From: an uncultured Myxococcota bacterium
Lineage (GTDB): Bacteria > Myxococcota_A > UBA796
Direction: 5' to 3'
DNA: 57,479 nucleotides
Assembly (NCBI GenBank): GCA_965661045.1
Contig: CBFICN010000003.1
Coordinates: 1 to 57,479, forward strand
Notes under the pieces: model-generated
The model's database searches: none
Told to the model about the DNA's origin: nothing
What the model saw: the letters and a program-made list of their open reading frames with translations, nothing else
Made by a program: the position numbers and the translations under genes
Part shown: positions 17,385-53,975 of the stretch, one piece after another
Numbering within the stretch: position 1 is the stretch's first letter
Layout: each line of letters starts with the position of its first letter

Positions 17385-19210
17385 AACCATCGCTACCATT
17401 CAACGCACCCAACTCCTACGCGCCGTTTATTTGCTGTGTATTCTCATCCTTGTTGATTGGTGGACTGCGGCTGGGACCCGTGTTGTGGAACCCCAGTGAC
17501 TATTTGATTGGTGGATGGGGGCATCCAGACAACATCGGCAATCACTGGTTGTTGGTGTGGGTGGCCGAAAGACTGTGGTCAGGGGAGTCATTGATTCACA
17601 ATGCTGAATATTATGTGCCGATTGGTGATCATCCTTGGTTGGCTGGGAATGGTACAGAAGGATTGTTGTATGCCCTGTTTCATCCTTGGTTGGGATGGCC
17701 GACGGCGGTGGTGCCACTGGTGTTGTTGTATTTTGTGGGAATGGGACTCGGAGGGTATGGCCTTGGGCGCGTGCTGTCATTGGGAAGGTGGGCTTCGTTG
17801 ATTCCGAGCATGGTCATTGTGTCTTCCGGATTTTGGACACGAGAGATCAACGCTGGACGATTTTCCCAACTGGATGGTGTGTGGCTTATTGCGTCTTTGG
17901 CTTTGTTTGTAGGACTGTTCACAGGAGAGCGTCGCAAAGGCTGGGCTACTTTGTGTGGTGTCACGGTTGGGTTGACTGGCATTTTTTATTGGTATTATGC
18001 CTATTTCTTTGTGTTGGCAGCACTGGTGTATTCGGGTGTGGCAGTTTTGTTGAAACCAGACACGATTTCCAAACCACGATTGCTCAACATTGGACTGGCG
18101 ATGCTGACTTCTTGGGTGGTGATCGCCCCTGTTGCTTGGGTGTACTGGCAACATTGGGGGTTGGTACCAGGGGTGGAGGAAGTCAAATTTCCATCCGCCG
18201 ATGCATTTTCCGACGCATTGACGTGGTCTGGTTCATGGCTTGTACCCTATGGACGAACAGCCGGTGCAGTACAGTCTATTCCCACTTTGGCACTGGCAAT
18301 TTTTGGGTGTGTGTCCGTAATTCGTCACCGAAATTCACCGACCACGCGCTTTGCTTTATTGAGTACGGTGTCCCTTTGTGGACTGTTTGGGTTATTGGCT
18401 TTTGGACCCAAGACGCCCCTCTTTGAATGGGTGTATGGCTGGTCGGTTCCTGTACGTCGGTTTTGGTGGCCCTCCCGTCATTTGTTGCTTTGGACTGTTG
18501 GGTGGGGTGTGCTGGCTGGTTTGGGTGGACGTGCGTTGCTTAGTACACTGTCGATGCGTTGGAGACCCCTGGCGGCAATTGTCTTGGCTTTGAGTGTCCC
18601 TGGTTCTCTTTGGGTACAGGGGGATCGACCTTTTCATGCCAACCACACACCCATTGAACATCCAGTGTCTGCCTATCAACCATTGACGACGTTGGAAGGG
18701 GAGGGGCTGTGGATGCACCCACTCAACCCCGCAGTTGCCAATACGCAGTTGCCGTTGTTGTTGCAACTGACCCACGGTAAGAAGTTGTTGAACGGTCACG
18801 GTATGTGGGTGGATAGGGTGCGACCGACCGAGTGGGATGAGTTTGTGGATGGCAATGCACTGTTGAAGGGCTTGTCCGAGTACGAGTTGGGCGCCCAAAA
18901 TCCGACGTTGAATATTTCTGCGTCTGACATCGATCAACTTGTGCAAACTGAACTGGAGTTGATCGTCTTGGATTCCAAACTCATACCGAGGCCACTGATG
19001 GGGTTGGTACCCAACTTAGCCAAGATTTACGGTCAATTGTTTGGAGAACCTGTATTGAGGGGAGAGCAATTGCGCGTGTGGTCCGTCGCCAATTGGACTG
19101 GAGTTACAGTGATTGCCTTGCCGAGTTGGACGTTGCCCAGTGGCATGGATTTGGGGAATGGGCGTCATCGGATGCCCGATCCCGTAGTTGGTCGTGGGGT
19201 GACACCATGA
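17375..19210 (+). CDS. Large polytopic membrane protein, GT-C-like (function unknown)
   Basis: 611 aa. About 12 TM segments followed by a roughly 200-aa soluble domain. Overlaps the upstream gene by 10 nt and the downstream gene by ATGA. Confidence 0.55.
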   Translation: MSIEPSLPFNAPNSYAPFICCVFSSLLIGGLRLGPVLWNPSDYLIGGWGHPDNIGNHWLLVWVAERLWSGESLIHNAEYYVPIGDHPWLAGNGTEGLLYALFHPWLGWPTAVVPLVLLYFVGMGLGGYGLGRVLSLGRWASLIPSMVIVSSGFWTREINAGRFSQLDGVWLIASLALFVGLFTGERRKGWATLCGVTVGLTGIFYWYYAYFFVLAALVYSGVAVLLKPDTISKPRLLNIGLAMLTSWVVIAPVAWVYWQHWGLVPGVEEVKFPSADAFSDALTWSGSWLVPYGRTAGAVQSIPTLALAIFGCVSVIRHRNSPTTRFALLSTVSLCGLFGLLAFGPKTPLFEWVYGWSVPVRRFWWPSRHLLLWTVGWGVLAGLGGRALLSTLSMRWRPLAAIVLALSVPGSLWVQGDRPFHANHTPIEHPVSAYQPLTTLEGEGLWMHPLNPAVANTQLPLLLQLTHGKKLLNGHGMWVDRVRPTEWDEFVDGNALLKGLSEYELGAQNPTLNISASDIDQLVQTELELIVLDSKLIPRPLMGLVPNLAKIYGQLFGEPVLRGEQLRVWSVANWTGVTVIALPSWTLPSGMDLGNGRHRMPDPVVGRGVTP

Positions 19211-20604
19211 GAGTATCTTCTGTTGCACTGATGCTCTTGTGTCTGGTGTGTTTGTGGCCCTATTCTCAAGGTGGCTTGGTGTGGGATGATCACATATTGC
19301 TAACCGAAGGGGTGTGGCAAATCGATAGTGTGTGGAGTATTTGGACACAATCGGTGCAAGGTGGGGAAATCGCCACCCAGTATTATCGACCAATACCGAT
19401 GACCCTGTTTGCACTGGTACCGAAGGTTCAACTGTTGCACTGGATTGCATTGATCACACATTTGGGGTCAACGCTCTTGTTGGGTTGCTGGTTGCACAAA
19501 AACTTTGACGATGCTGTAGTGCTAGCGGGAATGGCATTGTTTGCTCTACACCCCATTCAAACTGAGGTGTTGGGTTGGGTCAGTTGTTTGCCAGACATCT
19601 TGGCGCTTCATTTTGCACTTTGGACGGTCTATGGTTTGTGCAATCAATGGTCTCCTTGGTGGATTGGTCTGAGTTTCTGTTGTGGTTTGCTATCCAAAGA
19701 AGTCGCCCTCATTCCAATATTGGTGTACACCATCGACTGGCTGTGGACGAGGCGTCAACAAGGAGACCCTTTCGTTTTTCCAAAATGGGGATATTCCATT
19801 GGGAGTGCGTTGATTGTCGTTTTGGGGCTACGGATGATCATGCAGGTGCACACCGTGTGGCCTCATAGTTTCGACTCTGTTCCTCGGACGACGTTCTTCA
19901 CCCTTGGCATGGGGTGGTTTAGTTGGTTGAACCCCTTTCCACATTATCCGGTTCGAGATGTGTGGGTGCTGCCTCTTTGGTCTGTCTTGATAGGGTGGGC
20001 ATGGTGTGCTTGGATGCTGTGGAGGGGAGAGAGCGTTGTTGGGTGGCTCATCGCAATGGGTGCCTTGATCATCAGTTTACCACCTGTGTGGGTGGGCTAC
20101 TTTGCGGCCGAGCGCTATTTGTACATGGCGAGCGTTGGATTTGTTTGGTTGAGTTGTAGTGTGCTTTCACAAGTTGGGATTTCGAGGAGCATCATGCAGG
20201 GACTGCTGCTGATTTGGGTTCTATCGACGGGGTTGATTCACTGGGATCGAGCCAGCATTTGGTCCAGCGACAAGGCACTGTTCTCTGAGGCTGTTCGGGT
20301 GTTGCCAAAATCTGGGTATGCCTGGCACCTTCAAGGCTTACACCGGATACGAATTGGTCAGTTTGAATCGGCATTTCATTCTTTTACAGAAGCGAGTCAA
20401 CAGGCGCACACCCACCATCAAAGTCGTGAGTTTGCCATTCGCAGTGCATTGGAGTCTGGGTTGTCTGAACAGGCTTTTGAATTGGCAGAAACGGGACCCC
20501 AGATCGGTTTGTCAAAGGGGTATTTGGAAGCGTGGTTGCAGGCAGCCGATGCAGTGGGGAATACACAACGCAGTCAGGAATTGAGACAGATCTTGGCGGA
20601 CTAA
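19207..20604 (+). CDS. PMT_2/TMTC-like GT-C glycosyltransferase with C-terminal TPR-like repeats
   Basis: ATG 19207 overlaps TGA 19208..19210. N-terminal GGLVWDDHILL motif is typical of bacterial TMTC/DUF1736-type O-mannosyltransferases. Polytopic, with a helical-repeat C-terminus (AWHLQGLHRIRIGQFESAFHSFTEA...). Confidence 0.6.
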   Translation: MRVSSVALMLLCLVCLWPYSQGGLVWDDHILLTEGVWQIDSVWSIWTQSVQGGEIATQYYRPIPMTLFALVPKVQLLHWIALITHLGSTLLLGCWLHKNFDDAVVLAGMALFALHPIQTEVLGWVSCLPDILALHFALWTVYGLCNQWSPWWIGLSFCCGLLSKEVALIPILVYTIDWLWTRRQQGDPFVFPKWGYSIGSALIVVLGLRMIMQVHTVWPHSFDSVPRTTFFTLGMGWFSWLNPFPHYPVRDVWVLPLWSVLIGWAWCAWMLWRGESVVGWLIAMGALIISLPPVWVGYFAAERYLYMASVGFVWLSCSVLSQVGISRSIMQGLLLIWVLSTGLIHWDRASIWSSDKALFSEAVRVLPKSGYAWHLQGLHRIRIGQFESAFHSFTEASQQAHTHHQSREFAIRSALESGLSEQAFELAETGPQIGLSKGYLEAWLQAADAVGNTQRSQELRQILAD

Positions 20605-21848: not shown

Positions 21849-23867
21849 TTACCGCGACAATATGTGTGTCTGTTGGTTGTTTCGTGCTCTTCTTCGGTAA
21901 AATGAGTCCATGTACAAGATGTGTGGAAAAGTGATACAGGACCCCGCAATGATGATCCATCCTAAATGAAAGGGCTGTAGAGAGAGTGTCAGTACAAAGA
22001 TTGCACAAAAGAGAAATGCCCCAATCGTCAACGGCAATGCTTCTTGCCACATGGATCGATCAGATAGGGTGATGGCTTCTTTGAGGTGGGTCCACGCTTC
22101 CAAACTGTGTTGCCCAATAAAGTATAGACCGAATGCCATAGGGAGTGGCAACCATGCCGATGCCCACAAAGAGATCGTGGACAAGAACAACTGCACTGAA
22201 CGTGTTTTGAATAGCAAACCCACTTGTAGGAATGCCATGGACAACAACCAGCCAATGGAATTCTGCAGTGGTAGGCTAGAGTGTACCGACAGCAGTTCAA
22301 CAACAATCTGACTGTCTTCAGGATGAGACAGGATGATCCATCCCAACACCGATAGTCCCCATAGAAAAATAGACACTGTATGCTCCGGCAGTTTCCAATG
22401 CTGAAAGTCCGTTTGGCCAAAATGCCAAGCTGAGGTGAGTACAAATACCCCCAAACCAACAGTTGGACTGAGTAGCCACAGTACTGCCATACTTGCAATT
22501 AAACCCCAATAGCGCATGTGAAATGACCCATTCCATCTGGAGACACCTTGTTCGCCAACGGTATGATAATCCAAAGCTCCATGGGGTATGCCAATCGCCA
22601 GCATACCAAGTCCCAACAACACCCAGCCAGCATAGCCAGTATAAATGGGAAACAGTTGGTATAGGACGATCAATACACTCGTTGTCATCAGCAATAGGAT
22701 TGAGGGAGTAAAAAGACGTCTTTGAATTAGAGCCTGTAAAAAAGGTGTCCAAGGCAATCCAGCAAAAATTTCGATCTCTTCCCAAATACTTGTCTGTTGT
22801 CGAAGAAATTTGAGAACTCTGGCAAGCTGTTGGCTTCGAAAAAGTTCTTTAAAGATGTCCTTGCCCAAGTGTGGTTTTGTCATCAAAATGTGAATGAGTA
22901 GATCGTCGTAAAATGTGAATCGTGGCTGGGGGGTAATTGTGGGTTGTCGATCTAGATCCATACAAATTTCTGTTGCGTGTTCGTACATGGTTTCAAACGC
23001 GTAGCCCGTACTGGGTTTGACGGCACCAGCGCGAGATCCAATAGACAGACAATTGGGTAGAGAGGATGGAGTACTCGAATGGATTGACATTGAGATGATG
23101 CCCCGTTCTGTGTTCAGAACCGTAAATGAACCCCATTTTTTCTGTATGTAGTGTTCGAGGTGTTGCTCAGCTCTTTTGGTCTCGATGGGAGCAATTCCAA
23201 ATCGAGTGCACTCAACCAAAGCACGCGTTGAACTTTCCGGAAGAATGTACATAAATTGTGTGGCATCATCCTGTGGAATATCAAAATCCATCAGGGTCAA
23301 AGTGTCCTCTTGGATGTTGGGTTCTGAAAGTTCGATAAAGAATCCAACGAAGGATTGAAGCAACCCTCTTGAAGAATTTGTTGAAGAGGCAAGGGGACGG
23401 CCATCAAAAACTTGTTGGCTGATGATGGTTGTATTGGCAGTATCAATGCGCAAAGACTTGGAGCCTTCTATTGCATCAATCTTTTCTACACTGTCTCGAA
23501 GGATTTGAATGCCATGTTGTCTACACAATCGAGTTGTGGAATCAAACAGTTTTTGACTCTCAATTTGGTAATATTGATTGGGGGCAATGCATTGTTTTGG
23601 AAGTGGAGGTACTTCGGCAAATTTCCAGTGCCGTTGTATGACATCTTGATGCTCCAAGACAATGGGATCGGTCGGAGATGCCCAAAAACACAATGTTTTG
23701 GGTGTGTGTTTGTGTGTTGGCTCCACAATTAATATAGAGTACTGGCTCAAGATCCCACGTCGTTCGAACGCTCGTAGAATCAAGCAAGCTGCGATGCCCA
23801 ATCCACAAAATACAAAATCGTACTCCGGAAGCAAGTCCTGATGAGATGTGGCCTTCGAGGTTGACAT
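21849..23867 (-). CDS. Fusion protein: lycopene beta-cyclase (CrtY/CrtL-type, N-terminal) + beta-carotene 15,15'-dioxygenase (Brp/Blh-type, C-terminal)
   Basis: N-terminal part (about 22712..23867): FAD fold YDFVFCGLGIAAC, FMYILPESSTRALVECTRF, GSRAGAVKPSTGYAF. C-terminal part (about 21852..22711): 7-TM Blh with GIPHGALDY, SAWHFGQTDF, YFIGQHSLEAW. One uninterrupted frame. I prefer the ATG 23867 start because the GTG at 23909 lies inside the upstream terminator stem. Confidence 0.85.
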   Translation of the reverse strand: MSTSKATSHQDLLPEYDFVFCGLGIAACLILRAFERRGILSQYSILIVEPTHKHTPKTLCFWASPTDPIVLEHQDVIQRHWKFAEVPPLPKQCIAPNQYYQIESQKLFDSTTRLCRQHGIQILRDSVEKIDAIEGSKSLRIDTANTTIISQQVFDGRPLASSTNSSRGLLQSFVGFFIELSEPNIQEDTLTLMDFDIPQDDATQFMYILPESSTRALVECTRFGIAPIETKRAEQHLEHYIQKKWGSFTVLNTERGIISMSIHSSTPSSLPNCLSIGSRAGAVKPSTGYAFETMYEHATEICMDLDRQPTITPQPRFTFYDDLLIHILMTKPHLGKDIFKELFRSQQLARVLKFLRQQTSIWEEIEIFAGLPWTPFLQALIQRRLFTPSILLLMTTSVLIVLYQLFPIYTGYAGWVLLGLGMLAIGIPHGALDYHTVGEQGVSRWNGSFHMRYWGLIASMAVLWLLSPTVGLGVFVLTSAWHFGQTDFQHWKLPEHTVSIFLWGLSVLGWIILSHPEDSQIVVELLSVHSSLPLQNSIGWLLSMAFLQVGLLFKTRSVQLFLSTISLWASAWLPLPMAFGLYFIGQHSLEAWTHLKEAITLSDRSMWQEALPLTIGAFLFCAIFVLTLSLQPFHLGWIIIAGSCITFPHILYMDSFYRRRARNNQQTHILSR

Positions 23868-23892
23868 GGAAGTCCATTGCTGAGTGACGTTG

Positions 23893-23927
23893 AGAAAAAA
23901 GAAAACCACCCCAAATGGAGTGGTTTT
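23893..23927 (-). terminator. Rho-independent terminator between the rhodopsin gene and the crtY-blh fusion
   Basis: Minus-strand RNA AAAACCACUCC-AUUU-GGGGUGGUUUU, an 11-bp stem including one G.U with a 4-nt loop, followed by CUUUUUUCU. It starts 18 nt after the rhodopsin TAA. Confidence 0.8.
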
Positions 23928-23945: not shown

Positions 23946-24680
23946 TTATGCTGCTTGTTGTGCGCGAATCTTTTCACTCTCTGCTTTGGCAACGCTGTAT
24001 ACTACGAGACCGAATCCAATCTTGTTGATTGCGTCTGCAATGTTGTATACGATGTTCATTTCAAACATACCGGCCATCCAGTTGTCTGGCATAGTCATGT
24101 AACCAATCGGGTAGATAGACCATCCCAATGTGATGAAGATACCCAACAAGAACATGGCTTGCTTCAACTCAGGAGAGTCACTGGACTGAGAAAGTTTGCG
24201 TACGTCGCCAGCGAATACTTCGTATACGATGTAGGCGTAACCGATTGTTGAAATGAATCCCCAAAGGACAGAGCCACCACCGAGGATTGCAGCTTCACCA
24301 ATGTATCCGGTGACCAACATCCAAACAGAAGCAACGATCAACTTGAAGAGTGTGCTGCCTTTCGCGCCGAATGGTTTTGTGAGAAGATAGAATTCAACAC
24401 ACATCAATGGTACAGTCAAAATCCAGTCGATGTAACGGAATGCTGTGGGAGAAGTTCCAGTTTGAATCCAGAAGTCACGCATGTAGTAGTAGTGCACGCA
24501 TGCAATTCCAGTAATCAACGCAGATACAGTCAATGACAGACGCCACTTACCTTCTACAGAGTTGCGCTCCAGCAAAAAGAATGCTGTTGCAGCCATCATG
24601 GCCATTGTGCCGATGAAAAATGTGAAACCAGTGTAATCTTCTGTTCCAAGATTGCTGGCAGCCAGTAATAAGTTGTTCAT
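23946..24680 (-). CDS. Proteorhodopsin/xanthorhodopsin-type light-driven proton pump
   Basis: 244 aa, 7 TM. RYIDWILTVPLMCVEF gives the D-T-E motif (codons 24426..24428, 24414..24416, 24393..24395). His in CVHYYYM. Schiff-base Lys in YNIADAINKIGFG (24021..24023). GGAG RBS 7 nt upstream. Confidence 0.95.
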   Translation of the reverse strand: MNNLLLAASNLGTEDYTGFTFFIGTMAMMAATAFFLLERNSVEGKWRLSLTVSALITGIACVHYYYMRDFWIQTGTSPTAFRYIDWILTVPLMCVEFYLLTKPFGAKGSTLFKLIVASVWMLVTGYIGEAAILGGGSVLWGFISTIGYAYIVYEVFAGDVRKLSQSSDSPELKQAMFLLGIFITLGWSIYPIGYMTMPDNWMAGMFEMNIVYNIADAINKIGFGLVVYSVAKAESEKIRAQQAA

Positions 24681-24710
24681 GGTTTACTCCAATTTGAACC
24701 TGTTCATTAT

Positions 24711-24735
24711 CTATTCAAAAACGACTTTTGAATAG
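24711..24735. promoter_or_regulatory. Perfect 10-bp inverted repeat CTATTCAAAA-N5-TTTTGAATAG (candidate operator or 5'-UTR hairpin of the rhodopsin mRNA)
   Basis: Read directly from sequence, 31-55 nt upstream of the rhodopsin ATG. The half-site-like CTATTCAA recurs at 24826..24833. Confidence 0.5.
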
Positions 24736-24791
24736 TTAATTGTACAATATTGATTCTCATTGACCATATTTTAAAGAAGTATACAGCCAAA

Positions 24792-24823
24792 TTTCTGCAT
24801 TATTTGAATTTTAGATGCAGAAA
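24792..24823. promoter_or_regulatory. Perfect 9-bp inverted repeat TTTCTGCAT-N14-ATGCAGAAA
   Basis: Read directly from sequence in the divergent control region. Confidence 0.4.
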
Positions 24824-25157
24824 ACCTATTCAATGTATTCTGATGATGTGTTGGTATGTACGTATTTTTGGGATGATTGTACGTAAAGTATTAAACTCAC
24901 AAACTTGTTTTGTTGTATAAAGTTAATATATGCAAAATAATGCACTAATTTTTGAAAGAGTACGTTTAATCAGAAAAATGATCCATCATTTTATACTAGA
25001 CTTTAAATCAATACTGGGTCATCCTAATTTCTCTGCTGTGTTCGTCTCTGTCCCAAAAAAGACTATAAGACAATATAATGCCTATTCACTTTTCAAAATT
25101 GCAGTATGTATCATCTGGTTCAAGAAAAGAACTGAGCGATATGTTGGGAGAGCATCG

Positions 25158-26285
25158 ATGATGGCGGCTTTGTTTGCTCTTTGTTTGACGCCATTGTTGA
25201 TTGCAGTTGTCAATTTCTTGACTTGGTACAGGCCTGTTGGAAAAACACGTGACGCTTCAACGGCTCGCATTTCTGTGTTGATTCCCGTGCGAAACGAAGA
25301 ACACAATATTAGACAGTGCCTTGAACACGTCTATGATTCAGACACTGCTCCATTTGAAGTGATTGTCTACAATGACAACAGTACAGACGCAACCGCTGAA
25401 CAACTCAAAGCTATTCAAGTGCGGTACCCATCCTTGAAGGTTCTGCATGGAGCCGCTTTACCAATGGGTTGGGCCGGAAAGAACCACGCTTGTCATCAAC
25501 TTTCGAAAAGTGCTTCGGGAGACATTTTTGTTTTTTTGGATGCCGACACCAGGTTGATGTCTGGGTGCTTGCGTCACGTTCGGAGCATCGCCTATAGTCA
25601 AACATTGCCGTCTGATATGGTTTCTGTTCTGCCAAAGCAAACCATGCAGACCTTTTCTGAGCAATTGCTCATGCCCTTTCTACACCTTACCTTTGTGTCT
25701 TGGCTTCCACTCGAACTGGTGCGTCGATTGCCCTTTCCATCCATGACAGCCGCCATTGGTCAGGTCTTGGCTATTAAATCTGAGGCGTACAATCAATCGG
25801 GTGGTTTTGCTGCGATTCCAAATCAGTTGGTTGACGATATGGCATTGGCCACCCTATTCAAGAAGAATGGACAGACGGTGCGGTTTGTGGATGGGCACCA
25901 ACTCGTTTCTTGTCGTATGTATTCTTCTTTGTCTGACATTTGGCAAGGGTTTAGTAAAAATGTCTTTTTGGGCTTGAAGCAGAATATTTTCTTGTGGCTC
26001 TTTGTCATTGCATTGTACACACTCTGTTTTGTGCTCCCCTTTGTATTGCTGGCCTGTCTGCCGTTGTTGGAACCATCCATGGTTGGTTGGGTACTAGGGG
26101 GTGTTGGGGCGAATTACACGCTGAGGGTACTGCTGGCTCTTCGATATGAACAGTCCTGGTCGTCCGTTTTGTGTCATCCAATTGCCAGTGTGATCGCCAT
26201 CGGAATATTTTTCAACTCCGGACTGCAAACTTTAACCAAGGGTGTGGAGTGGAAAGGGCGCACCTATGGCAACGTCAAATCGTAG
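25158..26285 (+). CDS. Family-2 glycosyltransferase, CrtQ/CruC-like (carotenoid glycosyltransferase-like), membrane-embedded
   Basis: ATG 25158 after GGGAGAG; the upstream 76 codons of the ORF track are AT-rich non-coding. Motifs ISVLIPVRNEEHNI, VYNDNSTD, MGWAGKNHACHQ, FLDADT, C-terminal TM bundle ending VEWKGRTY. As I recall it, this is the same layout and terminal motif as Staphylococcus CrtQ. Confidence 0.7.
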   Translation: MMAALFALCLTPLLIAVVNFLTWYRPVGKTRDASTARISVLIPVRNEEHNIRQCLEHVYDSDTAPFEVIVYNDNSTDATAEQLKAIQVRYPSLKVLHGAALPMGWAGKNHACHQLSKSASGDIFVFLDADTRLMSGCLRHVRSIAYSQTLPSDMVSVLPKQTMQTFSEQLLMPFLHLTFVSWLPLELVRRLPFPSMTAAIGQVLAIKSEAYNQSGGFAAIPNQLVDDMALATLFKKNGQTVRFVDGHQLVSCRMYSSLSDIWQGFSKNVFLGLKQNIFLWLFVIALYTLCFVLPFVLLACLPLLEPSMVGWVLGGVGANYTLRVLLALRYEQSWSSVLCHPIASVIAIGIFFNSGLQTLTKGVEWKGRTYGNVKS

Positions 26286-27033
26286 ACACCCAATGGGAAA
26301 TCATTCTAAAGACGAGCGCGTACCGTTGTTTTATCGATTCATTCGATGGTTGATGGTGCGTAAACTTGGTCAGAATCTTGAGCAGGTATACATTCAGAAT
26401 CTTGAACAGGTTCAACACTTGCTCATCGAACAAAGCGTCATCATTGCCCCCAATCACGTGTGTTATTGGGATTCTTGCATGTATTTTTTGTTGAGTGGTT
26501 TGTTGGGACCACGTGCCTTTGTTTTGGTTGCCCAACAGACGCTGCGTCGATTGCCGTTTCTACGTTGGTGTGGGTCGATTCCCTTGAATACAGACTCCAA
26601 AGAGCAAGCCATTGCGCAATTGAAGGGGCTGTCCAATCTCAACACAGAGTCTACGCAGTTTTGGATTTTTCCGCAAGGGGAACACCGTCCGACTCAATGC
26701 ATGCCGTTGAAGTGTAAAAAAGGTGTGCTGCTGCTTGCCCAAGATTTGAAAATACCCATTGTTCCTATGTCCATTCAGTATTTGTATCGAAATTCTGAGC
26801 AACCTGTCGCCTATATCTCTTTTCAATCGTCACTATCGCACACTGTTGGTCTTAGCGAACTCGAACAGTCATTGAAGCAGGGGCTGGATGCATCCATACA
26901 GCATCATCTTGGTGAAGAAACACTGTCCTTTGTTCCATACTTTCCAGGGATTCAAGCTAGCCGAGATGATCTTCCAACCCGAATACTGGCTTGGTTTTCG
27001 GGCATGATTTTGGGTGATGTGTCCAAAAACTGA
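26266..27033 (+). CDS. PlsC/LPLAT-family acyltransferase
   Basis: HX4D motif APNHVCYWDS and FPQGEHRP (motif III). Overlaps the GT2 gene by 20 nt if ATG 26266 is used (GGAAAGGG RBS); alternative start ATG 26293. Confidence 0.75.
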   Translation: MATSNRRHPMGNHSKDERVPLFYRFIRWLMVRKLGQNLEQVYIQNLEQVQHLLIEQSVIIAPNHVCYWDSCMYFLLSGLLGPRAFVLVAQQTLRRLPFLRWCGSIPLNTDSKEQAIAQLKGLSNLNTESTQFWIFPQGEHRPTQCMPLKCKKGVLLLAQDLKIPIVPMSIQYLYRNSEQPVAYISFQSSLSHTVGLSELEQSLKQGLDASIQHHLGEETLSFVPYFPGIQASRDDLPTRILAWFSGMILGDVSKN

Positions 27034-27075: not shown

Positions 27076-27321
27076 TCATCGTTTTGAAAAATCGTATGGA
27101 TCGTCTGCGTCTGGATTGTCTTCTTTCCATTCTTCATACCAAATCATCTGAATGGCCTCGAGGTGCCCTTCAGTCGAAGCTTCAGGGTCTCCATCAAAAT
27201 CTTCCAGTGCCACAATCCAATCGTGTAATTCAGTGAACCGAATGGACAATGGGTGGATATCAGGCTTGAGATCGTAGAGTTCTTCAGCGATTTCGCGTGT
27301 GTTGTTCCAGTTGAGGGCCAT
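27076..27321 (-). CDS. iscX: IscX (YfhJ)-like Fe-S assembly accessory protein
   Basis: From ATG 27321: MALNWNNTREIAEELYDLKPDIHPLSIRFTELHDWIVALEDFDGDPEASTEGHLEAIQMIWYEEW, which closely parallels E. coli IscX (WTDSREIGEALYD...VRFTDMHQWI..LEDFDDDP...LEAI). The 60-codon upstream extension in the ORF track is rejected. Confidence 0.75.
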   Translation of the reverse strand: MALNWNNTREIAEELYDLKPDIHPLSIRFTELHDWIVALEDFDGDPEASTEGHLEAIQMIWYEEWKEDNPDADDPYDFSKR

Positions 27322-27393
27322 CTGTGCTCCAAGAGTTTTCAATGGTGTTAGTTTATATGAGAATATATCGACTTTGACCTGTCGGGAGTATCG

Positions 27394-28728
27394 ATGTCTG
27401 ATTTTTTTACCAATCCAGTGGTGCAAACAGTGTTTGGACTGGCTGTGTGCTTTGTCATCGCTTCTTGGTTGACCAGAATTCCCAAACTCAAGCAGTTGCA
27501 TTTGCCTTTGTCAATCGTAGCCGGAGCCGTAGGGGTACTTGCTCGGTATATAGATCCGACTTGGATGGATGTCGACGTACTCAAGACACTGGTTTATCAC
27601 GGATTGGCCTTGGTGTTCATCACGGTTGGGTTGCAGGTTCCACCACCCAACACCAAAACAAAGGAATCTCTCACCATTGGCTTTGCGATTTCTTCAATGG
27701 GTGCGATGCAAGGGTTTTTGGGCGCGACCGTGGTGATGTTGCTTTCCGCTTTGCAAGGCAGTCAATTGCATATCGGTTTGGGCCTACTGTTGCCACTTGG
27801 GTTCAATCAGGGACCAGGTCAAGCATTGTCGTTTGGACGGGTATGGGAGACGACTGGTTTGGAAAATGGGGCTGACATTGGCATCATCATTGCTGCGATG
27901 GGCTTTGTTTGGAGTGTGATCGTGGGGATCCCGTTGGTTGTGTACGGTCGTCAAAAAGGGTGGGTGGAACGTGATCTGGAGGGCTTGTCTTTTGACTCAG
28001 GTGTCACCGAGCAGACGGTCCCCAATTGGCTGAGTCGCCCAGAAACACTGAGCAACAGTGTGGCACTGGTGATTGGCACGTACTTTTTGACGTATGTACT
28101 GATTGATGGAGTCACCGAGCAGTTGGTGTCCAAACCCAAGATTGTCAACATGCTTTGGGGATTGCACTTTGTCATCGCGTTGTTCGTCGCGATGGGTATT
28201 CGACAAATGTTGCTTCGCTTCGTTGACGCTGATGGTGTAAAAGGGCACAATCAACGTCTCCAAGTGCTCAGCAATCTGACGGTGGATGTGACGACAGCAT
28301 CTGGATTGGTGGCCATTCAAGTTGCGGTGTTGTCTTCAAATTTGGGGGTGGTATTGTTGCTGACGACCTTGGGTGGTGTGGCGTCATTGGGCATGGCACT
28401 GGTTTTGTTTCGACGGGTGTTTGAACGATTGCCGTTTCACCACTTGGTTGTCTGGTTTGGTTCTTGTACCGGCACCTTTCCGATGGGGCTGTCGTTGTTG
28501 AGAATGATCGATCCCAACTTGAGTACCCCGTGTGCAACAAATTACTCTAAGGGTTCAGCATTTGCGTTGATCACATCGGCCCCTTTGTTGGTCTTGTTGG
28601 CCTACGCCATCGGTCAGTACCCCGACAATTACCCCAGTGCAGGATGGACTACGATGGGACTGTTGTTTGGGTATTGGATGTTCTTGCTGTTTGCCTGGCG
28701 TCGCATATGGGTCAAATCTTCAGATTGA
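27394..28728 (+). CDS. Sodium/glutamate symporter (GltS/ESS family)-like transporter
   Basis: 444 aa, about 12 TM, GGGAG RBS. Resembles GltS at LPLSIVAGAVGVL, GFNQGPGQALSFG and FGSCTGTFPMGLSLLRMI. Assigned by resemblance only. Confidence 0.5.
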   Translation: MSDFFTNPVVQTVFGLAVCFVIASWLTRIPKLKQLHLPLSIVAGAVGVLARYIDPTWMDVDVLKTLVYHGLALVFITVGLQVPPPNTKTKESLTIGFAISSMGAMQGFLGATVVMLLSALQGSQLHIGLGLLLPLGFNQGPGQALSFGRVWETTGLENGADIGIIIAAMGFVWSVIVGIPLVVYGRQKGWVERDLEGLSFDSGVTEQTVPNWLSRPETLSNSVALVIGTYFLTYVLIDGVTEQLVSKPKIVNMLWGLHFVIALFVAMGIRQMLLRFVDADGVKGHNQRLQVLSNLTVDVTTASGLVAIQVAVLSSNLGVVLLLTTLGGVASLGMALVLFRRVFERLPFHHLVVWFGSCTGTFPMGLSLLRMIDPNLSTPCATNYSKGSAFALITSAPLLVLLAYAIGQYPDNYPSAGWTTMGLLFGYWMFLLFAWRRIWVKSSD

Positions 28729-29203
28729 GGGTTCGAAACTCATCGGCATCTGGGTTGTGAAACCGTAAAAAGTCGGCGAAACTCACAGTGCCAGTATTGT
28801 GCTGGAGTGAGGAGAGAATTTCCAATGCCATATCCATAGACACGGCTTGCTCCTCCTCCGAAGGCGGAAGCATCTCTGTTGGAACTTGGGCGGTGTCTGG
28901 CTCTTCTTCGAGTGGTGTTTCTGGAAGGTTGGACTTCCAGCGCAATTGTCCAGACGGATGATAGGCCATCAAAGCGGTTTCGGTGGTGTTTCTCAAAAAG
29001 TAGTCGGTGAACAGTTCAAATCGGACTCGCTGATTGCTGGGTAAATGTTCTTGAATCCTGAGTTCGATCCCAAAGTTTTGCGCATAGTCATACAATATCC
29101 GCCGCATCGAAGCGATGCTGATGGTGTCGTGTTCGTCTGGTTCTCCCAAGTCAAAATACTGTCTCAATTCTTCAGGGGTCATGGGCGATGTGGTCTCACT
29201 CAA
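28712..29203 (-). CDS. Hypothetical acidic cytoplasmic protein
   Basis: 163-aa ORF (TTG start at 29203, or ATG 29182). 3' end overlaps the convergent transporter gene by 17 nt. Confidence 0.45.
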   Translation of the reverse strand: MSETTSPMTPEELRQYFDLGEPDEHDTISIASMRRILYDYAQNFGIELRIQEHLPSNQRVRFELFTDYFLRNTTETALMAYHPSGQLRWKSNLPETPLEEEPDTAQVPTEMLPPSEEEQAVSMDMALEILSSLQHNTGTVSFADFLRFHNPDADEFRTLNLKI

Positions 29204-29279
29204 AGTTTCTTATGTAAAACGGTCAATCAAATCTGGTCAATGTTCTTTTGTGTCGGATACGTTGCACTCAACAGTTGCT

Positions 29280-29993
29280 TTATACAGATGAAGCATAGAT
29301 CAATACAATACTGTAAAATGCTGCCAATAGACCCAACAATCCCAGCAAATACCATCGAAACTCATTCCATATTCCAGTAGGTTGGGTGTGATCTTGAATC
29401 TGACTGGTGTTTTGCAAAACCGCTTCATTGGTCTGCCAACGGCGCAAAGAAGTGGGCGTGGGAATCAACATTGGAACGGCTTCACAGTAGGTGGCGTACT
29501 CTTGTCCAAACCGAAGGTGACAAAAACGTTCTTGAATGAGGCGATTGGAAACAATGGCATAGACGAGCAATATGGGCACAAAGAGCAGTAAAAACGCTGG
29601 GGACCCCCACATGACACCCAGTCCAATGACCCCAAGCAGTTTGCCGAGCACAGAGGGGTGTCGAATGGTTGCGTAGGGTCCAGTATCCACCAATCGGACA
29701 GGTCCTCCGTCGACGTGCGTTCCAGGAGAGCCACCTCCAGCAATGAAGAGATATCCATACACGTACCATACCCACAGTCCACCAATGGCAATCGCGCTGG
29801 CTCCGACTGGATATCTCCAGAAGGGATGTCCAACAGTTTGCCAACCAACGTGCGCATCCAACTGGGTTCCCAGCCAACACATTACCATCGCTGCTGGAAA
29901 CATCACAAACGCATGAATGGCAAAGTTTCTATAGAGTTCAGGACTGCGAATCGCGGCAAAACAGGCAGCAGTGGTGGGGCGAATACGGTTCAT
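29280..29993 (-). CDS. ICMT/PEMT-family membrane methyltransferase
   Basis: 237 aa, multi-TM. GPYATIRHPSVLGKLLGVIGLGVMWGS resembles the RHP(M/S)Y motif of isoprenylcysteine carboxyl / phospholipid methyltransferases. Confidence 0.55.
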   Translation of the reverse strand: MNRIRPTTAACFAAIRSPELYRNFAIHAFVMFPAAMVMCWLGTQLDAHVGWQTVGHPFWRYPVGASAIAIGGLWVWYVYGYLFIAGGGSPGTHVDGGPVRLVDTGPYATIRHPSVLGKLLGVIGLGVMWGSPAFLLLFVPILLVYAIVSNRLIQERFCHLRFGQEYATYCEAVPMLIPTPTSLRRWQTNEAVLQNTSQIQDHTQPTGIWNEFRWYLLGLLGLLAAFYSIVLIYASSV

Positions 29994-40856: not shown

Positions 40857-43800
40857 TTATTGATCCTCTTGAGCACGTTCGAGCGCTTCAATGATGGCGG
40901 GTCGCAACTGCTTAGCCTCAATAATTGCGTCGAGTGAACCAACATCAATTGCCCGTTGAACGCTGTGGATATTGTCAAACTCAGTTGCGATGATGCCACG
41001 TTTCTCCAACGTCAATGTAGTGAGCATTTTGTTGCGTTCTTCTAGCAAAAATGGTTTTTCTGCATTTCGGGCTTCTTGGATTCGCTTGTCCAGTTCGATC
41101 AAGCGTTCATCTTCATTGACCAGCGCTTTGACTTTTCGAGGGAATACGACCGCAGCAGCCGGTGCGCCTCCAATAACAGAGGCAAAGGAACCTTCGACTG
41201 CAATGGCCGTGATATTGGGGTTGAGTGCTTTGGAAAACACCACATAGGCCCCACCGTGATAGCGCCCAATCACGACGAAGACGATCGGTGATGCACAGTT
41301 GACCACTGCGCGTCCAATTTCCGCGCCGTACTCTAGTTGCAATCTGCGCAACGACTCGGGTGAACCATCAAACCCACTGAGATTGGCCAGTACCACGATC
41401 GGCGTTTGTCCACTGGCTGCATTGATGGCGCGCGCAATCTTTTTGGAACTTTGCGGAAATAGGGTACCCCCAGTCCAGGTGTCGGGGCCATCCAAGGGCA
41501 CTCGACCACGCCGCAAGATCGGTTGGGATTCAATTCCAATGACTGTGCTGGAAATCCCTCCAATGTGCGCAGACCACACAATGGCCGATTCTCCTTGGTG
41601 CAGTTGAGCAAAGCGTTCAAGATACTGACTGTCCTGATCAATCAGTGCTTGCATCACTTGACGAATGGCGAACGGCTTTTTTCGTTCTGGGTTGTGCTCT
41701 TTCGAAAAGATATCCCCAATCCGTTTGAAGTAGGGGTGATTCTCATCGGTATAGGGATGTAAGCACACATTTCTATTGGGAGAGTCATTGGTCAACTGTT
41801 TGGGAGATCGACCGGTTTGTGGGTCACAGAAGGTGTGTCGATAAATCTCAAACAAGAGGGCATAGGCCTCTCCCAAATCAGCAACTCGGTATTGGGATTG
41901 TCCGTTTGGTCCCATGATGCGCTCAACACCACCGATGCCACGCTCGTCTTCAGCAGAAACGCCCCCTGAAAAGTCCAGTGCCTTCTTCCCTGTGAGAACC
42001 ATGGCGGCTTGGGTTGTCATAATCAACACCCCTTTGGTGTGCATGAGCATCGTGGCTTCTGCATTCCAGTACGATTGCGCACCCACGTTGATTCCGTGTA
42101 CAATGACGTGAATGACCCCACCTGATTGGGTAAATTGGATGATTCGCTCCAGAACTCGGGCAGTCCAGTCAAGGTTTTCCGTACCGGAGTTCATGGATAT
42201 CATGGCCCCAGCCGAAACAGGGACCCACTCAACAGGAATGCTCAGTTCTAAAGCCAAATCAAGCGCCGCCATAATGCGAGAACACTCTTTTTCTGCCAGT
42301 GACCCCATCGCTTTCGTTGAGTCGGATCCAATCCAAATGCGTTGCATTCCTTGTGGAAATTTACTCGTGGTGTTGTTGATAATTCCTACAACGACACCAC
42401 AATTGTTTTGACCAAAGGGTCTCAACACTGGAACAAACTGACCACTGGAATTGAAGTCGTATTCTTGAAAACGACCGTTTCGCATGTCTGGATGTGGAAT
42501 GTTCAATGCGGTGGGAGACCCTTCAAGCATTCGAATGATTTCATATGGGTAGACGTGTCCAAACTTCTGGGCCCGTACGGCCTTCATATCATAGGTGGAC
42601 ATCGGTGGGATGGCCAGATGGTTGTCGAGCCAGTTGAATTCAAGCTGGTTGTTTCCTGACCGTCGGAGCTGAATGGTCGACCATTGGAATCGACTCGCCC
42701 GGGTTCGTAGGTGCAACTGAACTTCTCTAAGGTTTAAGCCACGCGTGTAGGGCTCTAACTGCTTGGCAAACAGTTGCAGCTCGGCTTCGTTGGTGTCCAA
42801 CTGGGGGTGGATGTGAAAGTAGAGCCAGTTCCACTGCAATCGTGATCGCTTTGTGCGTTGAGACTGTGTACTTCGGATCGCGCGAATGGCTTCAAAAAAT
42901 ACCCGTTCAAAGTGACGCAAGGGAAATGCTGCCCCTTCCGTGGAAGAGCCAAACACCTCGGCCAGCACAAAGATCCGTTCGTCTTTGGCATTGCTGTGGG
43001 CTTGTCCCAAAAACGCATAGATGTGTTCTTGTGAATAAATGCGAGACAGTTTGAACTCTTTGAGCCTTTCTAGTTTCAGTCGACTGGCAACTTGAGGGTG
43101 GATGTCGTTGAGCAAGGTTTGGAAGCGCCATTGTCCCTTTTGATAGACAAAGGTTCGATGGTGCGCCAGTTCGTTGTTCATCCAGGTCAGCGTGATGCGT
43201 TTGGGTTGAATCGGGAGTGTTGTCAGCAGGATGGGGGCTTGTTCAAGCCAAGACTCATCCAGTCCTTGGGGCAGTACAAATTCCAAATAGGTTGCCGGAT
43301 TGATCATCAGTTGCAAAATCTGTAGGATATTGTCTTTTGTGGTGTCGGGTTTGAACAGGATGGACAGGATGCGATCGGACTGGTTGATTTTCCCTTCGAC
43401 CAGAGCGTGCCCCTCTACCTCGGCATCATTTGTCCAAGTGTAGGTCTCCCCAATGTAAAAACGACGCGTCAGCGCTTCAATGATTCGGTGCGGTTGAGCG
43501 CCACTCTGCATTTGATACAGCGTTTGTTGGAGGGCTTGTGGTGATCGGCCAAGTTTCCGCATAACGGTGCGAACCACTTTGCTGTCGGCGTCGTAAGATT
43601 CCATACTCGAAAACATTTCCTGAACGGCTGCGGTTAGGGCTTCCATTTGTCGTCTGTTTTCACCGTGGGCAAAGAACAGGTGGTGGGCATGAATCGCATT
43701 GTCCTGTACATAAGGGTGGTCGGTGTGGGCCGCTTGACCTGTTTTTTCAAGGATGTCTTCAAGTTCTGCCGGTGGAGTCCAGTTGGTTTGGTGTAAGCGG

Positions 43801-51541: not shown

Positions 51542-52767
51542 ATATTTTCCTTGACCCAAGCAAGGGCACTTTCTTTGCTGTGTAATCTTTCGTGTAATTG
51601 TTCGGTTCGCACTTTGTCTATCCAAACACCAATGTCCGGACCTTTCAATCCAAGTGCAATCAAGTCTTTTCCAGAAATCAAACGTGGCAGTGGGGTGGTC
51701 AGTCCTCGGCTCAAAGCACTTTGTCTATTTTGTGCAGCGATTTCACCTTCAGTCCCTTCGACGATGGAGGCTACATCACACAGGAATTGGATGTCAAAAA
51801 TATCACTGCAGATATTTTGGGTGATGGTGCTGTGATCGGAGGTGAGCAAAGGGGTGGCAAGGTTGGTTCCCAGAATGGCCTCTTTGACTGGAAAGCCCAT
51901 GAAGCGTTCGATGCTCAGCGCGTCCAACAAAGCGAGTGTTTCGTCTTTTGAAAGAGGATGGGTCAACAGCGCTAAAAACAGTCCCATGCTGCGTCCAGGG
52001 TTGTTGGGGGCTCGAAGTCTGGCGCCCCGTCTGCAAGATTCAACGATGCACTCTTTATCTGCTTTGCTTAGCGAAGCGTATTGTGGAAAATAGTTGGGCA
52101 TTGCGTTGAGTTCAAACAGCCATTCAACTGCCACATGTGGTTCTGGACTTTTCATCCAAGCTTTTTGCAATTCAACCCACACGCGCTCTTTGGGAAGGCG
52201 TACAAAGTCTGGGTGTTGGACCAATGTATGACACAAGGTTTGGAGACTTGCATCCACAGTGCACGAAAGTCGACCGGCAAATTGACAGACTCGAAACACC
52301 CGCAACAAGTCTTGGGCAAAATATTTCACGTCTGTGGCCCGCAACACCTTGTTTTCTAAGTCGGTCAACCCATTGAAGGGGTCGACGAGTTGTTGCGTCT
52401 CTATGTGAATCAACATTGAATTGATGGTGAGGTCTCTTCTTCGACAGGCTTCCTCCACTCCCACAAAGGGCGTCGGTTCATCGAGCAGTTTTGGAAGTGC
52501 AACATCGACTTCGAGTTCATCACCGTGTTGAGGCAAGAGTTTCCACACCCCAAAACTTTTTCCGACCTTTCGAAAGGGGGGGAACCGATAGAGAATGTCT
52601 ACAAGTTGCTCCGTCGTCAACCCGTGGACTTCTACGTCAATGTCCTTGGAGTCAATTCCCAGTAGGTGGTCTCGAACACTTCCACCTGTCACATACACAT
52701 CTCCGCCGGCTTTGCTGACGGCCTTGGAGAAGTGCAGAACTTTGTCTGGCAGAGAAATTTCTGTCAT
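51529..52767 (-). CDS. cca: CCA-adding enzyme (tRNA nucleotidyltransferase, class II)
   Basis: 412 aa. VYVTGGSVRDHLLGIDSKDIDVEV, RRDLTINSM, C-terminal HD-like region. Confidence 0.85.
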   Translation of the reverse strand: MTEISLPDKVLHFSKAVSKAGGDVYVTGGSVRDHLLGIDSKDIDVEVHGLTTEQLVDILYRFPPFRKVGKSFGVWKLLPQHGDELEVDVALPKLLDEPTPFVGVEEACRRRDLTINSMLIHIETQQLVDPFNGLTDLENKVLRATDVKYFAQDLLRVFRVCQFAGRLSCTVDASLQTLCHTLVQHPDFVRLPKERVWVELQKAWMKSPEPHVAVEWLFELNAMPNYFPQYASLSKADKECIVESCRRGARLRAPNNPGRSMGLFLALLTHPLSKDETLALLDALSIERFMGFPVKEAILGTNLATPLLTSDHSTITQNICSDIFDIQFLCDVASIVEGTEGEIAAQNRQSALSRGLTTPLPRLISGKDLIALGLKGPDIGVWIDKVRTEQLHERLHSKESALAWVKENICSP

Positions 52768-53975
52768 GGTTTGATCTCCAAATGGGGGGGTAAACTAAAT
52801 CGAAGTTCAGAGCAACCGTAGGTACTCGGGGTCAGTCGAATGACAGTGTGCAGTGGGATTGAAAGACGGGGCACTTCTGCTTTGTTGTGGTTCATAAAAT
52901 AGCCGTAAATGACACGCAGGATTGCTTGATGGGCAACCACCAAAACGGGTTTGGAACGGTGCTCGAGTGCTAGAATAATGGGTTCCACGCGGCGAATGAC
53001 GTCTTCATAAGATTCTCCTTGTGGATAGCGATAGCGGAGTTTGTCGCTTGCACGTCCTTCAGCCACACTGGGGTGCTGCTGGGCAATTTCTTCATAGGTG
53101 AGGTTGTCGCACAGACCGGCATGGATTTCGTCGAGTATTTTCCAGCGTTGAATCGGTCGGCCCAATCTAGACGCCGTTTGCACCGTGCGGACCAGGGTGC
53201 TTGTCCACACCTCTTCAACCTCCACATCTTGCATGAAGTCGCTGAGAGAATTGGCATATCGTCGACCGTTGGGGCTGAGACTGGAATCTCCTCCAACTCG
53301 ATTTTGGGTGTTGTAGATGCTTTGTCCGTGTCGAGTAAGCCAGATTTTGGTGGGGACCAAGTTTAACTGCGAGACCAAATGGGCGACTTTAATGAGAATC
53401 GGACCCGATATTCGATGGAGTACGACTTTTCGTCCAGCGTCGATGATCTTGATCCACGGTGTGGGACCGTCTTGAAGGGGTTCGTAGGAACTCACATAGT
53501 GGGCAATGCGGGCTTTAAAGTCGGCTATCGCATCGTCTTTGGAACTGTGAACATAGTCTGGTGAAGTCAGTTTGCTTTGGGCGATGTTGGTGTCAATGAT
53601 GCTCTCGTCTTCGCAGATCGATTCAATAAACGCGCAGTGTATCCCGCGACGCCCCAACTGTTCCAATAGCCATTGTCTGCGTACTGTTGTACTGTTGGTT
53701 GCATCAAAAACAGCAACCTCTCCACCTTGGTTTAACCACTCAATCATATCGGTCAGGGCAGATTGTGCGGCTTGATGGCGAGCCTTGACCCCTTCTTCAT
53801 TAGTCGGCGAGAAAAAGTGATGGGGGACATCGGCACCACTTTGTTGGCGCCTGTAATTTCCGACGTTGAACACTTTGCTTCGATAACCAAGCCAGTCTAG
53901 GTGTCGAGCGATACGTCGGGCGGTGTAGGTCTTACCACGCGCGGGCAGGCCAACCATAATCAGGGCAGCAGACAT
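52764..53975 (-). CDS. Bifunctional 6-phosphofructo-2-kinase / fructose-2,6-bisphosphatase-like protein (eukaryote-type)
   Basis: 403 aa. IMVGLPARGKTYTARRIARHLDWLGYRSKVFNVGNYRR closely parallels animal PFKFB N-termini. Histidine-phosphatase domain WLTRHGQSIYN ... VVAHQAILR. ATGA overlap with cca, TGATG overlap with the helicase. Confidence 0.8.
   Translation of the reverse strand: MSAALIMVGLPARGKTYTARRIARHLDWLGYRSKVFNVGNYRRQQSGADVPHHFFSPTNEEGVKARHQAAQSALTDMIEWLNQGGEVAVFDATNSTTVRRQWLLEQLGRRGIHCAFIESICEDESIIDTNIAQSKLTSPDYVHSSKDDAIADFKARIAHYVSSYEPLQDGPTPWIKIIDAGRKVVLHRISGPILIKVAHLVSQLNLVPTKIWLTRHGQSIYNTQNRVGGDSSLSPNGRRYANSLSDFMQDVEVEEVWTSTLVRTVQTASRLGRPIQRWKILDEIHAGLCDNLTYEEIAQQHPSVAEGRASDKLRYRYPQGESYEDVIRRVEPIILALEHRSKPVLVVAHQAILRVIYGYFMNHNKAEVPRLSIPLHTVIRLTPSTYGCSELRFSLPPHLEIKP

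Follow-up and report, generated by a model that had tools for sequence, protein, structure and literature searches.

A CruC/CruD-like glycosyltransferase and acyltransferase pair next to a proteorhodopsin gene: a probable carotenoid tailoring module in a Myxococcota contig

Carotenoid glycoside esters are made by the joint action of a glycosyltransferase and an acyltransferase. In the staphyloxanthin pathway of Staphylococcus aureus these are CrtQ, a family 2 glycosyltransferase (GT2), and the acyltransferase CrtO; like the enzymes of Paenibacillus, they act on C30 apocarotenoic acids and form a glycosyl ester at the carboxyl group. In the CruC/CruD system of green sulfur bacteria (chlorobactene glucosyltransferase and lauroyltransferase), first a membrane GT2 and then an LPLAT-type acyltransferase (AT) modify a monocyclic carotenoid at its C-1' hydroxyl, and CruC and CruD are also the enzymes proposed for the glycosylation and acylation of salinixanthin (PMC5822342, PMC7414004). 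Here we describe a GT2 and AT gene pair at positions 25158-27033 of a contig from an uncultured Myxococcota bacterium (CBFICN010000003.1, positions 1 to 57,479; this whole stretch is called the window), where it stands divergently beside a proteorhodopsin (PR) gene. Judged from its sequence and gene context, it is most probably a carotenoid tailoring pair of the CruC/CruD type.

That proteorhodopsins can carry carotenoid antennas was discovered only recently; to our knowledge, the antenna pigments described so far were found by biochemistry and none was predicted from a locus. The gene for xanthorhodopsin (XR) of Salinibacter ruber, the partner of salinixanthin, presumably has only a ketolase gene and blh nearby, and not the glycosyl and acyl genes. 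Described operons of PR and XR contain blh with at most four core crt genes (PMC13043013), and in the one paper that proposes a salinixanthin cluster beside XR, the glucosyltransferase and acyltransferase candidates lie outside that cluster. A preliminary description of the window regarded the combination of pump, retinal supply and tailored antenna as not described before for proteorhodopsin loci, and full-text searches likewise found no paper describing a rhodopsin beside cruC/cruD-type genes. What is new is a supercluster of PR, retinal and acyl-glycoside pathway genes in relatives, together with its reduced form in the window; the kind of enzyme pair is already known.

The reading of the pair as CruC/CruD-like is carried by domain identity, conserved motifs, the coupling of the two genes (including a natural fusion), synteny with carotenoid genes, and linkage to PR in the nearest clade. 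The GT2 gene (25158-26285, + strand) encodes a CruC-like membrane protein of 375 amino acids, identified by Pfam and by its homologues. Glycos_transf_2 (PF00535) matches it at 2.7e-19, above the cutoff, and Glyco_transf_21 and Glyco_tranf_2_3 match as well. An N-terminal transmembrane helix is followed by a GT-A domain with the DXD motif in the form DAD and by C-terminal transmembrane helices, the hydrophobic segments being evident in the sequence; D128-A129-D130 is invariant in two alignments. The protein thus combines the domain, the DXD motif and the transmembrane segments that define the inverting, lipid-acceptor GT2s of the GT-A fold, and its closest solved structure is 5MLZ, the membrane GT2 DPMS, which has a lipid acceptor. 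Homologue alignments begin at 25158, which is taken as the start. A longer open reading frame (ORF) from ATG 24930 was rejected as spurious because the homologues align from 25158 and ATG 24930 falls within non-coding sequence that is conserved as a block.

The AT gene (26293-27033, + strand) encodes a CruD-like acyltransferase of the LPLAT/PlsC type, 246 amino acids long from ATG 26293, recognised by PF01553, by its motifs and by its adjacency to the GT2 gene. On the mechanically called ORF (26242-27033), PF01553 matches at 1.7e-15, with 57 bits against a cutoff of 23. Among 18 GT2-linked acyltransferases from several phyla, the blocks NH(72)xxxWD(77) and FPQG(143-146) align with N-H, W-D and P144-Q145-G146 invariant; PF01553 with the HX4D and FP(E/Q)G blocks places the protein in the LPLAT/PlsC superfamily, and its closest solved structure is PlsC (5KYM). 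All GT2 and HX4D acyltransferase motifs listed in the preliminary description are present in the translations (VLIPVRNEE, GWAGKNHAC, FLDADT and VEWKGRTY in GT2; NHVCYWDS and FPQGEHR in AT), and Pfam supports both assignments.

The same description had the two ORFs overlapping. Their tight coupling is borne out, but an overlap in the window is not: the 44 nucleotides (nt) of overlap hinge on the mechanically called start GTG 26242 and are an artefact of that calling. The two closest AT homologues (78-79% identical, 247 amino acids) begin at the residue equivalent to ATG 26293, so that AT probably starts there, 7 nt past the GT2 stop, and the two genes are tightly coupled but probably non-overlapping here. 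In relatives they do overlap, by 14 nt in locus L001 and by 8 nt in L003. The coupling goes furthest in P0083, a protein of 633 amino acids from a Logan contig, which is a natural GT2-AT fusion whose halves match the window proteins at 3e-89 and 7e-30.

To which GT2 family does the glycosyltransferase belong? A protein search returned 2530 relatives, of which the nearest (81% and 59% identical) are unnamed marine metagenome proteins. Many homologues at 40-46% identity bear the KO-derived JGI name 'chlorobactene glucosyltransferase' (CruC), and the NCBI labels in that range are Myxococcota and Bradymonadia, including Lujinxingia; GT2s of Chlorobi are 36-39% identical over the full length. The preliminary description had proposed placing the protein by hidden Markov models, and among the NCBIfam models the best match is HpnB, the hopanoid-associated GT2 (TIGR03469; 149 bits, cutoff 379), with CruG, the myxol 2'-O-glycosyltransferase (NF045692), at 115 bits against a cutoff of 600. 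Both matches are full-length but below cutoff, and both families share the GT2 subfamily architecture of the window protein. Presumed CruC orthologues from Chlorobium and Thermochlorobacter give the same pattern (HpnB at 205-218 bits, above CruG at 130-139 bits, all sub-cutoff), and the HpnB top match is therefore not evidence for hopanoids; judged by these scores, it is a property of the whole CruC-like family. The GT2 of L001 scores higher with CruG than with HpnB.

The genomic company of the pair points to carotenoids. A GTDB scan covering one genome per species, with flanks screened by homology, returned 80 loci, and since the best match to the window GT2 is only 44% identical, this lineage is not represented among the GTDB species genomes. 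AT lies directly beside GT2 in 55 of these loci, spread over six or more phyla. A CrtI-family gene is found within 6 kb of GT2 in 64 loci, a CrtD-like gene within 3 kb in 32, and a CrtW-like gene within 8 kb in 22. Gene order differs by lineage: Myxococcota and Gemmatimonadota have GT2-AT-CrtD, Poribacteria have CrtI-CrtI-AT-GT2-CrtW, Ignavibacteria and Paenibacillus have AT-GT2, and Chlorobi have GT2 alone. In Paenibacillus the pair, with a GT2 of the same family, belongs to C30 clusters and is flanked by CrtI-family genes. Another locus, L089, has a full crt cluster in the order MerR, CrtB, CrtI, CrtE, cyclase; CrtC, GT2, CrtD, CrtW. Across about 160 loci, the neighbours are CrtD, CrtI, CrtW, CrtC and CrtB-type genes, with no hopanoid gene context. 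The carotenoid linkage (64/80 for CrtI-family genes, and the full clusters of L088 and L089) is what is expected of a CruC, and the coupling to a carotenoid GT2 (55/80, and the P0083 fusion) what is expected of a CruD. The proposal of the preliminary description that the pair tailors an acyl-glycosyl carotenoid is thus supported by homologue names, by both kinds of linkage and by the fusion.

Is the linkage to PR also conserved? PR-linked pairs were found in five independent marine contigs from different samples, with GT2s 57-81% identical to that of the window. L084, whose GT2 is 81% identical, has exactly the window layout: LysE, CrtY-Blh, PR, a gap of 485 nt, GT2, AT. In L001/L002, L085 and L087 (GT2 57-59% identical) the order is PR; CrtW-like, GT2, AT, and in L085 and L087 a CrtY-Blh gene is present beyond PR. 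L086 and L088 extend the cluster: AT, CrtD-like; CrtB, geranylgeranyl diphosphate synthase, CrtL-type cyclase; CrtC-like hydratase, CrtI. L085 is tied to both, sharing its source sample with L088 and its GT2 protein with L086, and the order across the three is CrtY-Blh, PR; CrtW, GT2, AT, CrtD; CrtB, CrtE, cyclase; CrtC, CrtI. CrtW is present in L001, L085 and L087. Best NCBIfam matches of the relatives' proteins are CrtW at 213 bits, CrtD at 339 bits (HpnE at 43 bits), crtI_fam at 511 bits and carotene-cyclase at 243 bits (both above cutoff), CrtB at 179 bits and CrtC at 49 bits.

In a neighbour-joining tree, the PR-linked GT2s form one subclade, sister to L003/L090 (46% identical), and the two together are sister to the Myxococcota/Gemmatimonadota group. 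L003 carries CrtW-GT2-AT-CrtD-SDR without PR. A JGI metagenome scan of 80 loci showed PR linkage in none; it added one close locus, L098, with CrtW-GT2-AT-CrtD on a contig that ends before the PR side. The synteny with rhodopsin genes that the preliminary description put forward for comparison is therefore kept in the five contigs of the nearest clade but absent from the 80 GTDB and 80 JGI loci: PR linkage is confined to the nearest clade. The pair shares with CruC/CruD the two-step chemistry expected of its families, but it differs in that its genes are adjacent and coupled, whereas Chlorobi have the GT2 alone and cruC of R. marinus is unlinked (PMC5822342). It also differs in belonging to a clade deeply separate in the tree and in standing beside PR.

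What would the pair make? The cyclase, 4-ketolase, 1',2'-hydratase, 3',4'-desaturase, GT2 and AT predicted in the relatives together match the expected route to a 4-keto monocyclic carotenoid 1'-glucoside ester, following the pathway logic proposed for the myxobacton-ester/salinixanthin class in Rhodothermus and Salinibacter (PMC5822342, PMC7414004). By analogy with CruC and with the relatives' gene set, we infer the substrate, sugar and acyl donor as follows. The polytopic GT2 would bind a nucleotide sugar through its DXD motif and glycosylate a hydroxyl of a membrane-embedded carotenoid, the acceptor probably being the tertiary C-1' hydroxyl of a monocyclic 1'-hydroxy gamma-carotene derivative. 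AT, with its HX4D catalytic dyad, would then esterify the sugar with a fatty acid, giving a carotenoid acyl glycoside of the myxobacton-ester/salinixanthin class. Some relatives have two cyclases, a CrtY domain fused to Blh (L085/L087) and a separate CrtL-type cyclase in the pigment cluster (L088, 4396-5724). With this arrangement, the bicyclic beta-carotene needed for retinal could be kept apart from the monocyclic gamma-carotene that goes into the glycoside ester.

On this reading, the window locus would have been pared down from an ancestral supercluster, intact in relatives, in which the pump (PR), the retinal supply (CrtY-Blh) and a complete keto-carotenoid acyl-glucoside pathway lie side by side. 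It is suggestive that the retinal supply and the sugar/acyl pair are what was left beside the pump after the cluster broke up, with the two sister genomes (window and L084) counting as one evolutionary event. A tblastn search with the relatives' carotenoid proteins found no CrtW, CrtC, CrtD, CrtB, CrtE, CrtI or CrtL in the 57-kb window, and Pfam scans of its other large ORFs, consistent with this, found no carotenoid genes either; nor is there a CrtW, CrtO or CrtZ-like gene in these 57 kb. A degraded ketolase gene in the gap between PR and GT2 was also considered and rejected, as tblastn with the relatives' proteins gave no match there. Since CrtY-Blh and PR need beta-carotene, the missing core carotenoid genes presumably lie elsewhere in this genome.

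The PR gene (23946-24680, - strand) encodes 244 amino acids and matches PF01036 at 2.7e-41. Its closest match in the PDB is NM-R1 of Nonlabens marinus (9JOU/9JOV) at 247 bits, compared with about 200 bits for GPR and 113 bits for XR (3DDL). The alignment shows a DTE motif (D85/T89/E96) and a tuning-site Met93, and it pairs Gly141, within LWGFIST, with the Gly of LWG in NM-R1. The preliminary description had credited the rhodopsin with a fenestration Gly, and this alignment agrees. From this alignment and the bacteriorhodopsin (BR) sequence, we take Gly141 to be equivalent to G156 of XR and W138 of BR. With XR, the window pump shares proton pumping and the Gly at the fenestration, and the relatives' predicted pigment is, like salinixanthin, a 4-keto monocyclic carotenoid 1'-glucoside fatty-acid ester; unlike XR, the pump belongs to a Bacteroidota-like PR subclade, and the window has no ketolase. 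According to the NM-R1 paper, Bacteroidota PRs share the Met at the tuning site and the Gly at XR position 156, where SAR11 PRs have bulky residues. NM-R1 was solved with myxol and with zeaxanthin, and of the contacts to the carotenoid ring that the paper names, Y194, M195 and W201 are kept in the window PR while three are changed (W139V, L143F, Y202M). Thus the window PR and NM-R1 have DTE, the Met tuning residue, the LWG Gly and these three contacts in common, but NM-R1 binds non-glycosylated 3-hydroxy carotenoids, and its flavobacterial locus has no GT2-AT pair. At position 202, where NM-R1 has the ring contact Tyr202, Met is found in the window and L084, which lack CrtW, and Leu in the CrtW-bearing loci; this pattern is confounded by phylogeny, as the window and L084 are sisters.

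How secure is the assignment to the CruC/CruD type? Several points count against it. The two NCBIfam models, HpnB and CruG, both score the window GT2 under cutoff, and NCBIfam holds no curated CruC or CruD model to score against. A word-indexed search with AT returned only 23 close relatives, none named CruD and, where named, generic PlsC. No hydratase (CrtC/CruF), CrtD, CrtW, CrtB, CrtE or CrtI gene lies within 57 kb, so that substrate supply is assumed. Could the pair instead modify another lipid, a hopanoid in the manner of HpnB or a glycolipid, with PR nearby by coincidence? The HpnB top match, the resemblance of AT to PlsC and the absence of any further carotenoid tailoring gene from the window would fit such a role. 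However, the HpnB score is far under its cutoff, the presumed Chlorobi CruC orthologues rank the models in the same way, the L001 GT2 prefers CruG, and the approximately 160 loci have carotenoid neighbours, including CrtD-like proteins that match CrtD much better than HpnE. Orthologues are tied to carotenoid genes and not to polysaccharide, ceramide or hopanoid genes, which runs counter to the other-lipid alternative raised in the preliminary description; it is largely refuted by synteny and seems very improbable. It is also highly unlikely that the pair is a decaying, functionless remnant of the ancestral cluster, as the loss of CrtW, CrtD, CrtB, CrtE, cyclase, CrtC and CrtI from the locus, compared with relatives, might suggest. 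Both ORFs are intact with every family-invariant residue, and the same two-gene layout is kept in L084. Between the window and L084 (81% amino acid identity in GT2), identity over the pair is 0.92 at codon position 2 and 0.62 at position 3, which indicates purifying selection. By these sequence measures the window pair is not decaying.

If the CruC/CruD-type pair tailors a carotenoid, does PR use the product? There is about an even chance that PR does not bind the acyl-glycosyl carotenoid, which would instead have a general role in the membrane or in photoprotection, and that the genes are adjacent only because retinal and the pigment draw on the same lycopene/beta-carotene pathway. The GT2-AT-CrtD module is widespread (Myxococcota, Gemmatimonadota, Poribacteria, Ignavibacteria, Paenibacillus) and has no rhodopsin within 10 kb of GT2 in any of the 80 GTDB loci. 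Rhodothermus makes salinixanthin and has no rhodopsin (PMC5822342), and PR operons often carry crt genes merely for retinal supply (PMC13043013). The window has no ketolase or ring hydroxylase, and beta-carotene, whose ring is unsubstituted, does not bind the rhodopsin Kin4B8 (PMC12308411). By contrast, the genes kept beside PR in the window and L084 after the break-up are exactly CrtY-Blh and GT2-AT, and PR still has the Gly at the fenestration along with most residues of the NM-R1 ring pocket. These observations would fit a product that serves the adjacent PR as a light-harvesting or photocycle-accelerating antenna, as salinixanthin serves xanthorhodopsin, a possibility that we raise tentatively and by analogy. 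In its favour, the PR-GT2-AT linkage is kept in the five independent contigs though GT2 identity drops to 57%, the relatives encode the full set for a salinixanthin-class pigment, and Gly141 and Met93 are as in carotenoid-binding Bacteroidota PRs, of which NM-R1 is nearest; a sequence motif pair in the shared intergenic region, with one copy within the pigment cluster of L088, points the same way. It is weakened in the window by the missing ketolase and by the change of three of the six NM-R1 ring contacts. Furthermore, salinixanthin binds Kin4B8 without energy transfer (PMC12308411), and in L091-L095 PRs of this clade have no GT2 nearby.

PR and GT2 are separated by a divergent intergenic region of 477 nt (24681-25157), which agrees with the preliminary description of a 477-nt gap to a divergent rhodopsin beside a CrtY-Blh fusion. 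The PF01036 match of the rhodopsin and the cyclase and Blh domains of its neighbour confirm the rest. In an alignment of five loci, this region is conserved in blocks, while coding third positions are saturated. The motif ACCT(A/G)TTCA occurs in it at 24698-24706 and 24824-24832; the window as a whole has six copies against 1.24 expected, and none of 100 shuffles reaches six. Every PR-linked locus has a pair of these motifs 126-137 bp apart, against a background of 0.14 per 10 kb in other loci, and the copy in L088 lies in the 73-nt intergenic region between cyclase and CrtC. Further elements are a palindrome with 10-bp arms, CTATTCAAAA-N5-TTTTGAATAG (24711-24735), and a conserved block, ATGCAAAATAATGCAC (ATGCA-N6-ATGCA, 24930-24945). 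Because the motif and a similar palindrome also precede PR in L091, a locus without GT2, the elements are primarily tied to the PR promoter; from sequence, shared control of the GT2 operon by them is possible, and the conserved elements may be the operator of some regulator.

Downstream of PR lies the gene for the CrtY-Blh fusion (lycopene cyclase and beta-carotene 15,15'-dioxygenase; 21849-23909, - strand), identified by Pfam and NCBIfam and recurring in L084, L085 and L087. A terminator-like hairpin with an 11-bp stem followed by a T run (23902-23927, - strand) stands between the PR stop and the CrtY-Blh start. Sitting directly past the PR stop, it overlaps the start called mechanically for CrtY-Blh, whose homologue alignment begins at 23867. 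The hairpin suggests that PR is highly expressed and that read-through into crtY-blh is attenuated, and it was the sole standout of a promoter and terminator scan in which the counts for the region were no higher than chance. On the other side, the genes 3' of the pair (27076-29993) are unrelated, and conserved beside the pair in no other locus. Two large polytopic membrane proteins without a Pfam or NCBIfam match flank the locus (27394-28728 and 19078-20604, both + strand); the one of 444 amino acids has no homologue beside the pair in any other locus. The bacterial window also encodes three eukaryote-like proteins: a single-chain acetyl-CoA carboxylase of 1844 amino acids with biotin carboxylase, BCCP, ACC_central and carboxyltransferase domains (40857-46391, - strand), a bifunctional 6-phosphofructo-2-kinase/fructose-2,6-bisphosphatase (52764-53975, - strand) and a Suv3-type DEXQ helicase (53975-56392, - strand).

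Where did the PR gene come from? The nearest named relatives of PR, 66-74% identical, are from Cyclobacteriaceae and Balneolaceae, and one named relative stands in a Bacteroidota context with a type IX secretion system and Blh. The GT2 and the cluster are Myxococcota-like, and we infer that PR was probably acquired horizontally. Shine-Dalgarno-like GGAG sequences precede the PR and GT2 starts, which argues against a Bacteroidota host. PR is 93-99.6% identical in amino acids among the window, L001, L084, L085, L087 and L091, while in the same loci the neighbouring GT2s are only 56-81% and the CrtY-Blh proteins 46-74% identical; third-codon identity for the same pairs is 0.59-0.66 in PR versus 0.37-0.41 in GT2. 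Such conservation would be explained by very strong purifying selection or codon bias acting on PR, or by a PR gene that was exchanged more recently. In L091-L095 (e.g., L091, 10001-12049), a PR 95% identical to that of the window has other genomic surroundings: 123 nt downstream of it comes an LPLAT acyltransferase of 396 amino acids with a C-terminal extension, and then HSP20. This acyltransferase was rejected as an AT orthologue, being 24-25% identical over approximately 117 residues, and L091-L095 are a second, independent case of a PR next to an acyltransferase gene.

For annotation, and even should the pigment be only photoprotective, these data define as a carotenoid tailoring pair a GT2-AT module that is widespread across many phyla and often mis-annotated under the names 'glycosyltransferase family 2' and 'PlsC'. 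For rhodopsin biology, a PR locus with salinixanthin-type tailoring genes offers a direct, clonable hypothesis for the carotenoid used by a marine PR. The PR-linked pair allows the question of whether the glycoside-ester tail matters for binding, and comparing the relatives with and without CrtW is a natural way to ask what the 4-keto group contributes. It is conceivable, though we hold it with limited confidence, that a marine lineage acquired a Bacteroidota-type PR and keeps it linked to the genes for a salinixanthin-class acyl glycoside, with the pigment acting as the antenna or photocycle accelerator of the pump. If so, the supercluster would be a genetically self-contained unit of pump, retinal and antenna in the PR family, and the xanthorhodopsin-salinixanthin principle, known from hypersaline Salinibacter, would reach ocean plankton. 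In that case the window would be a slimmed-down descendant in which sugar addition and acylation are the only tailoring steps left beside the pump.

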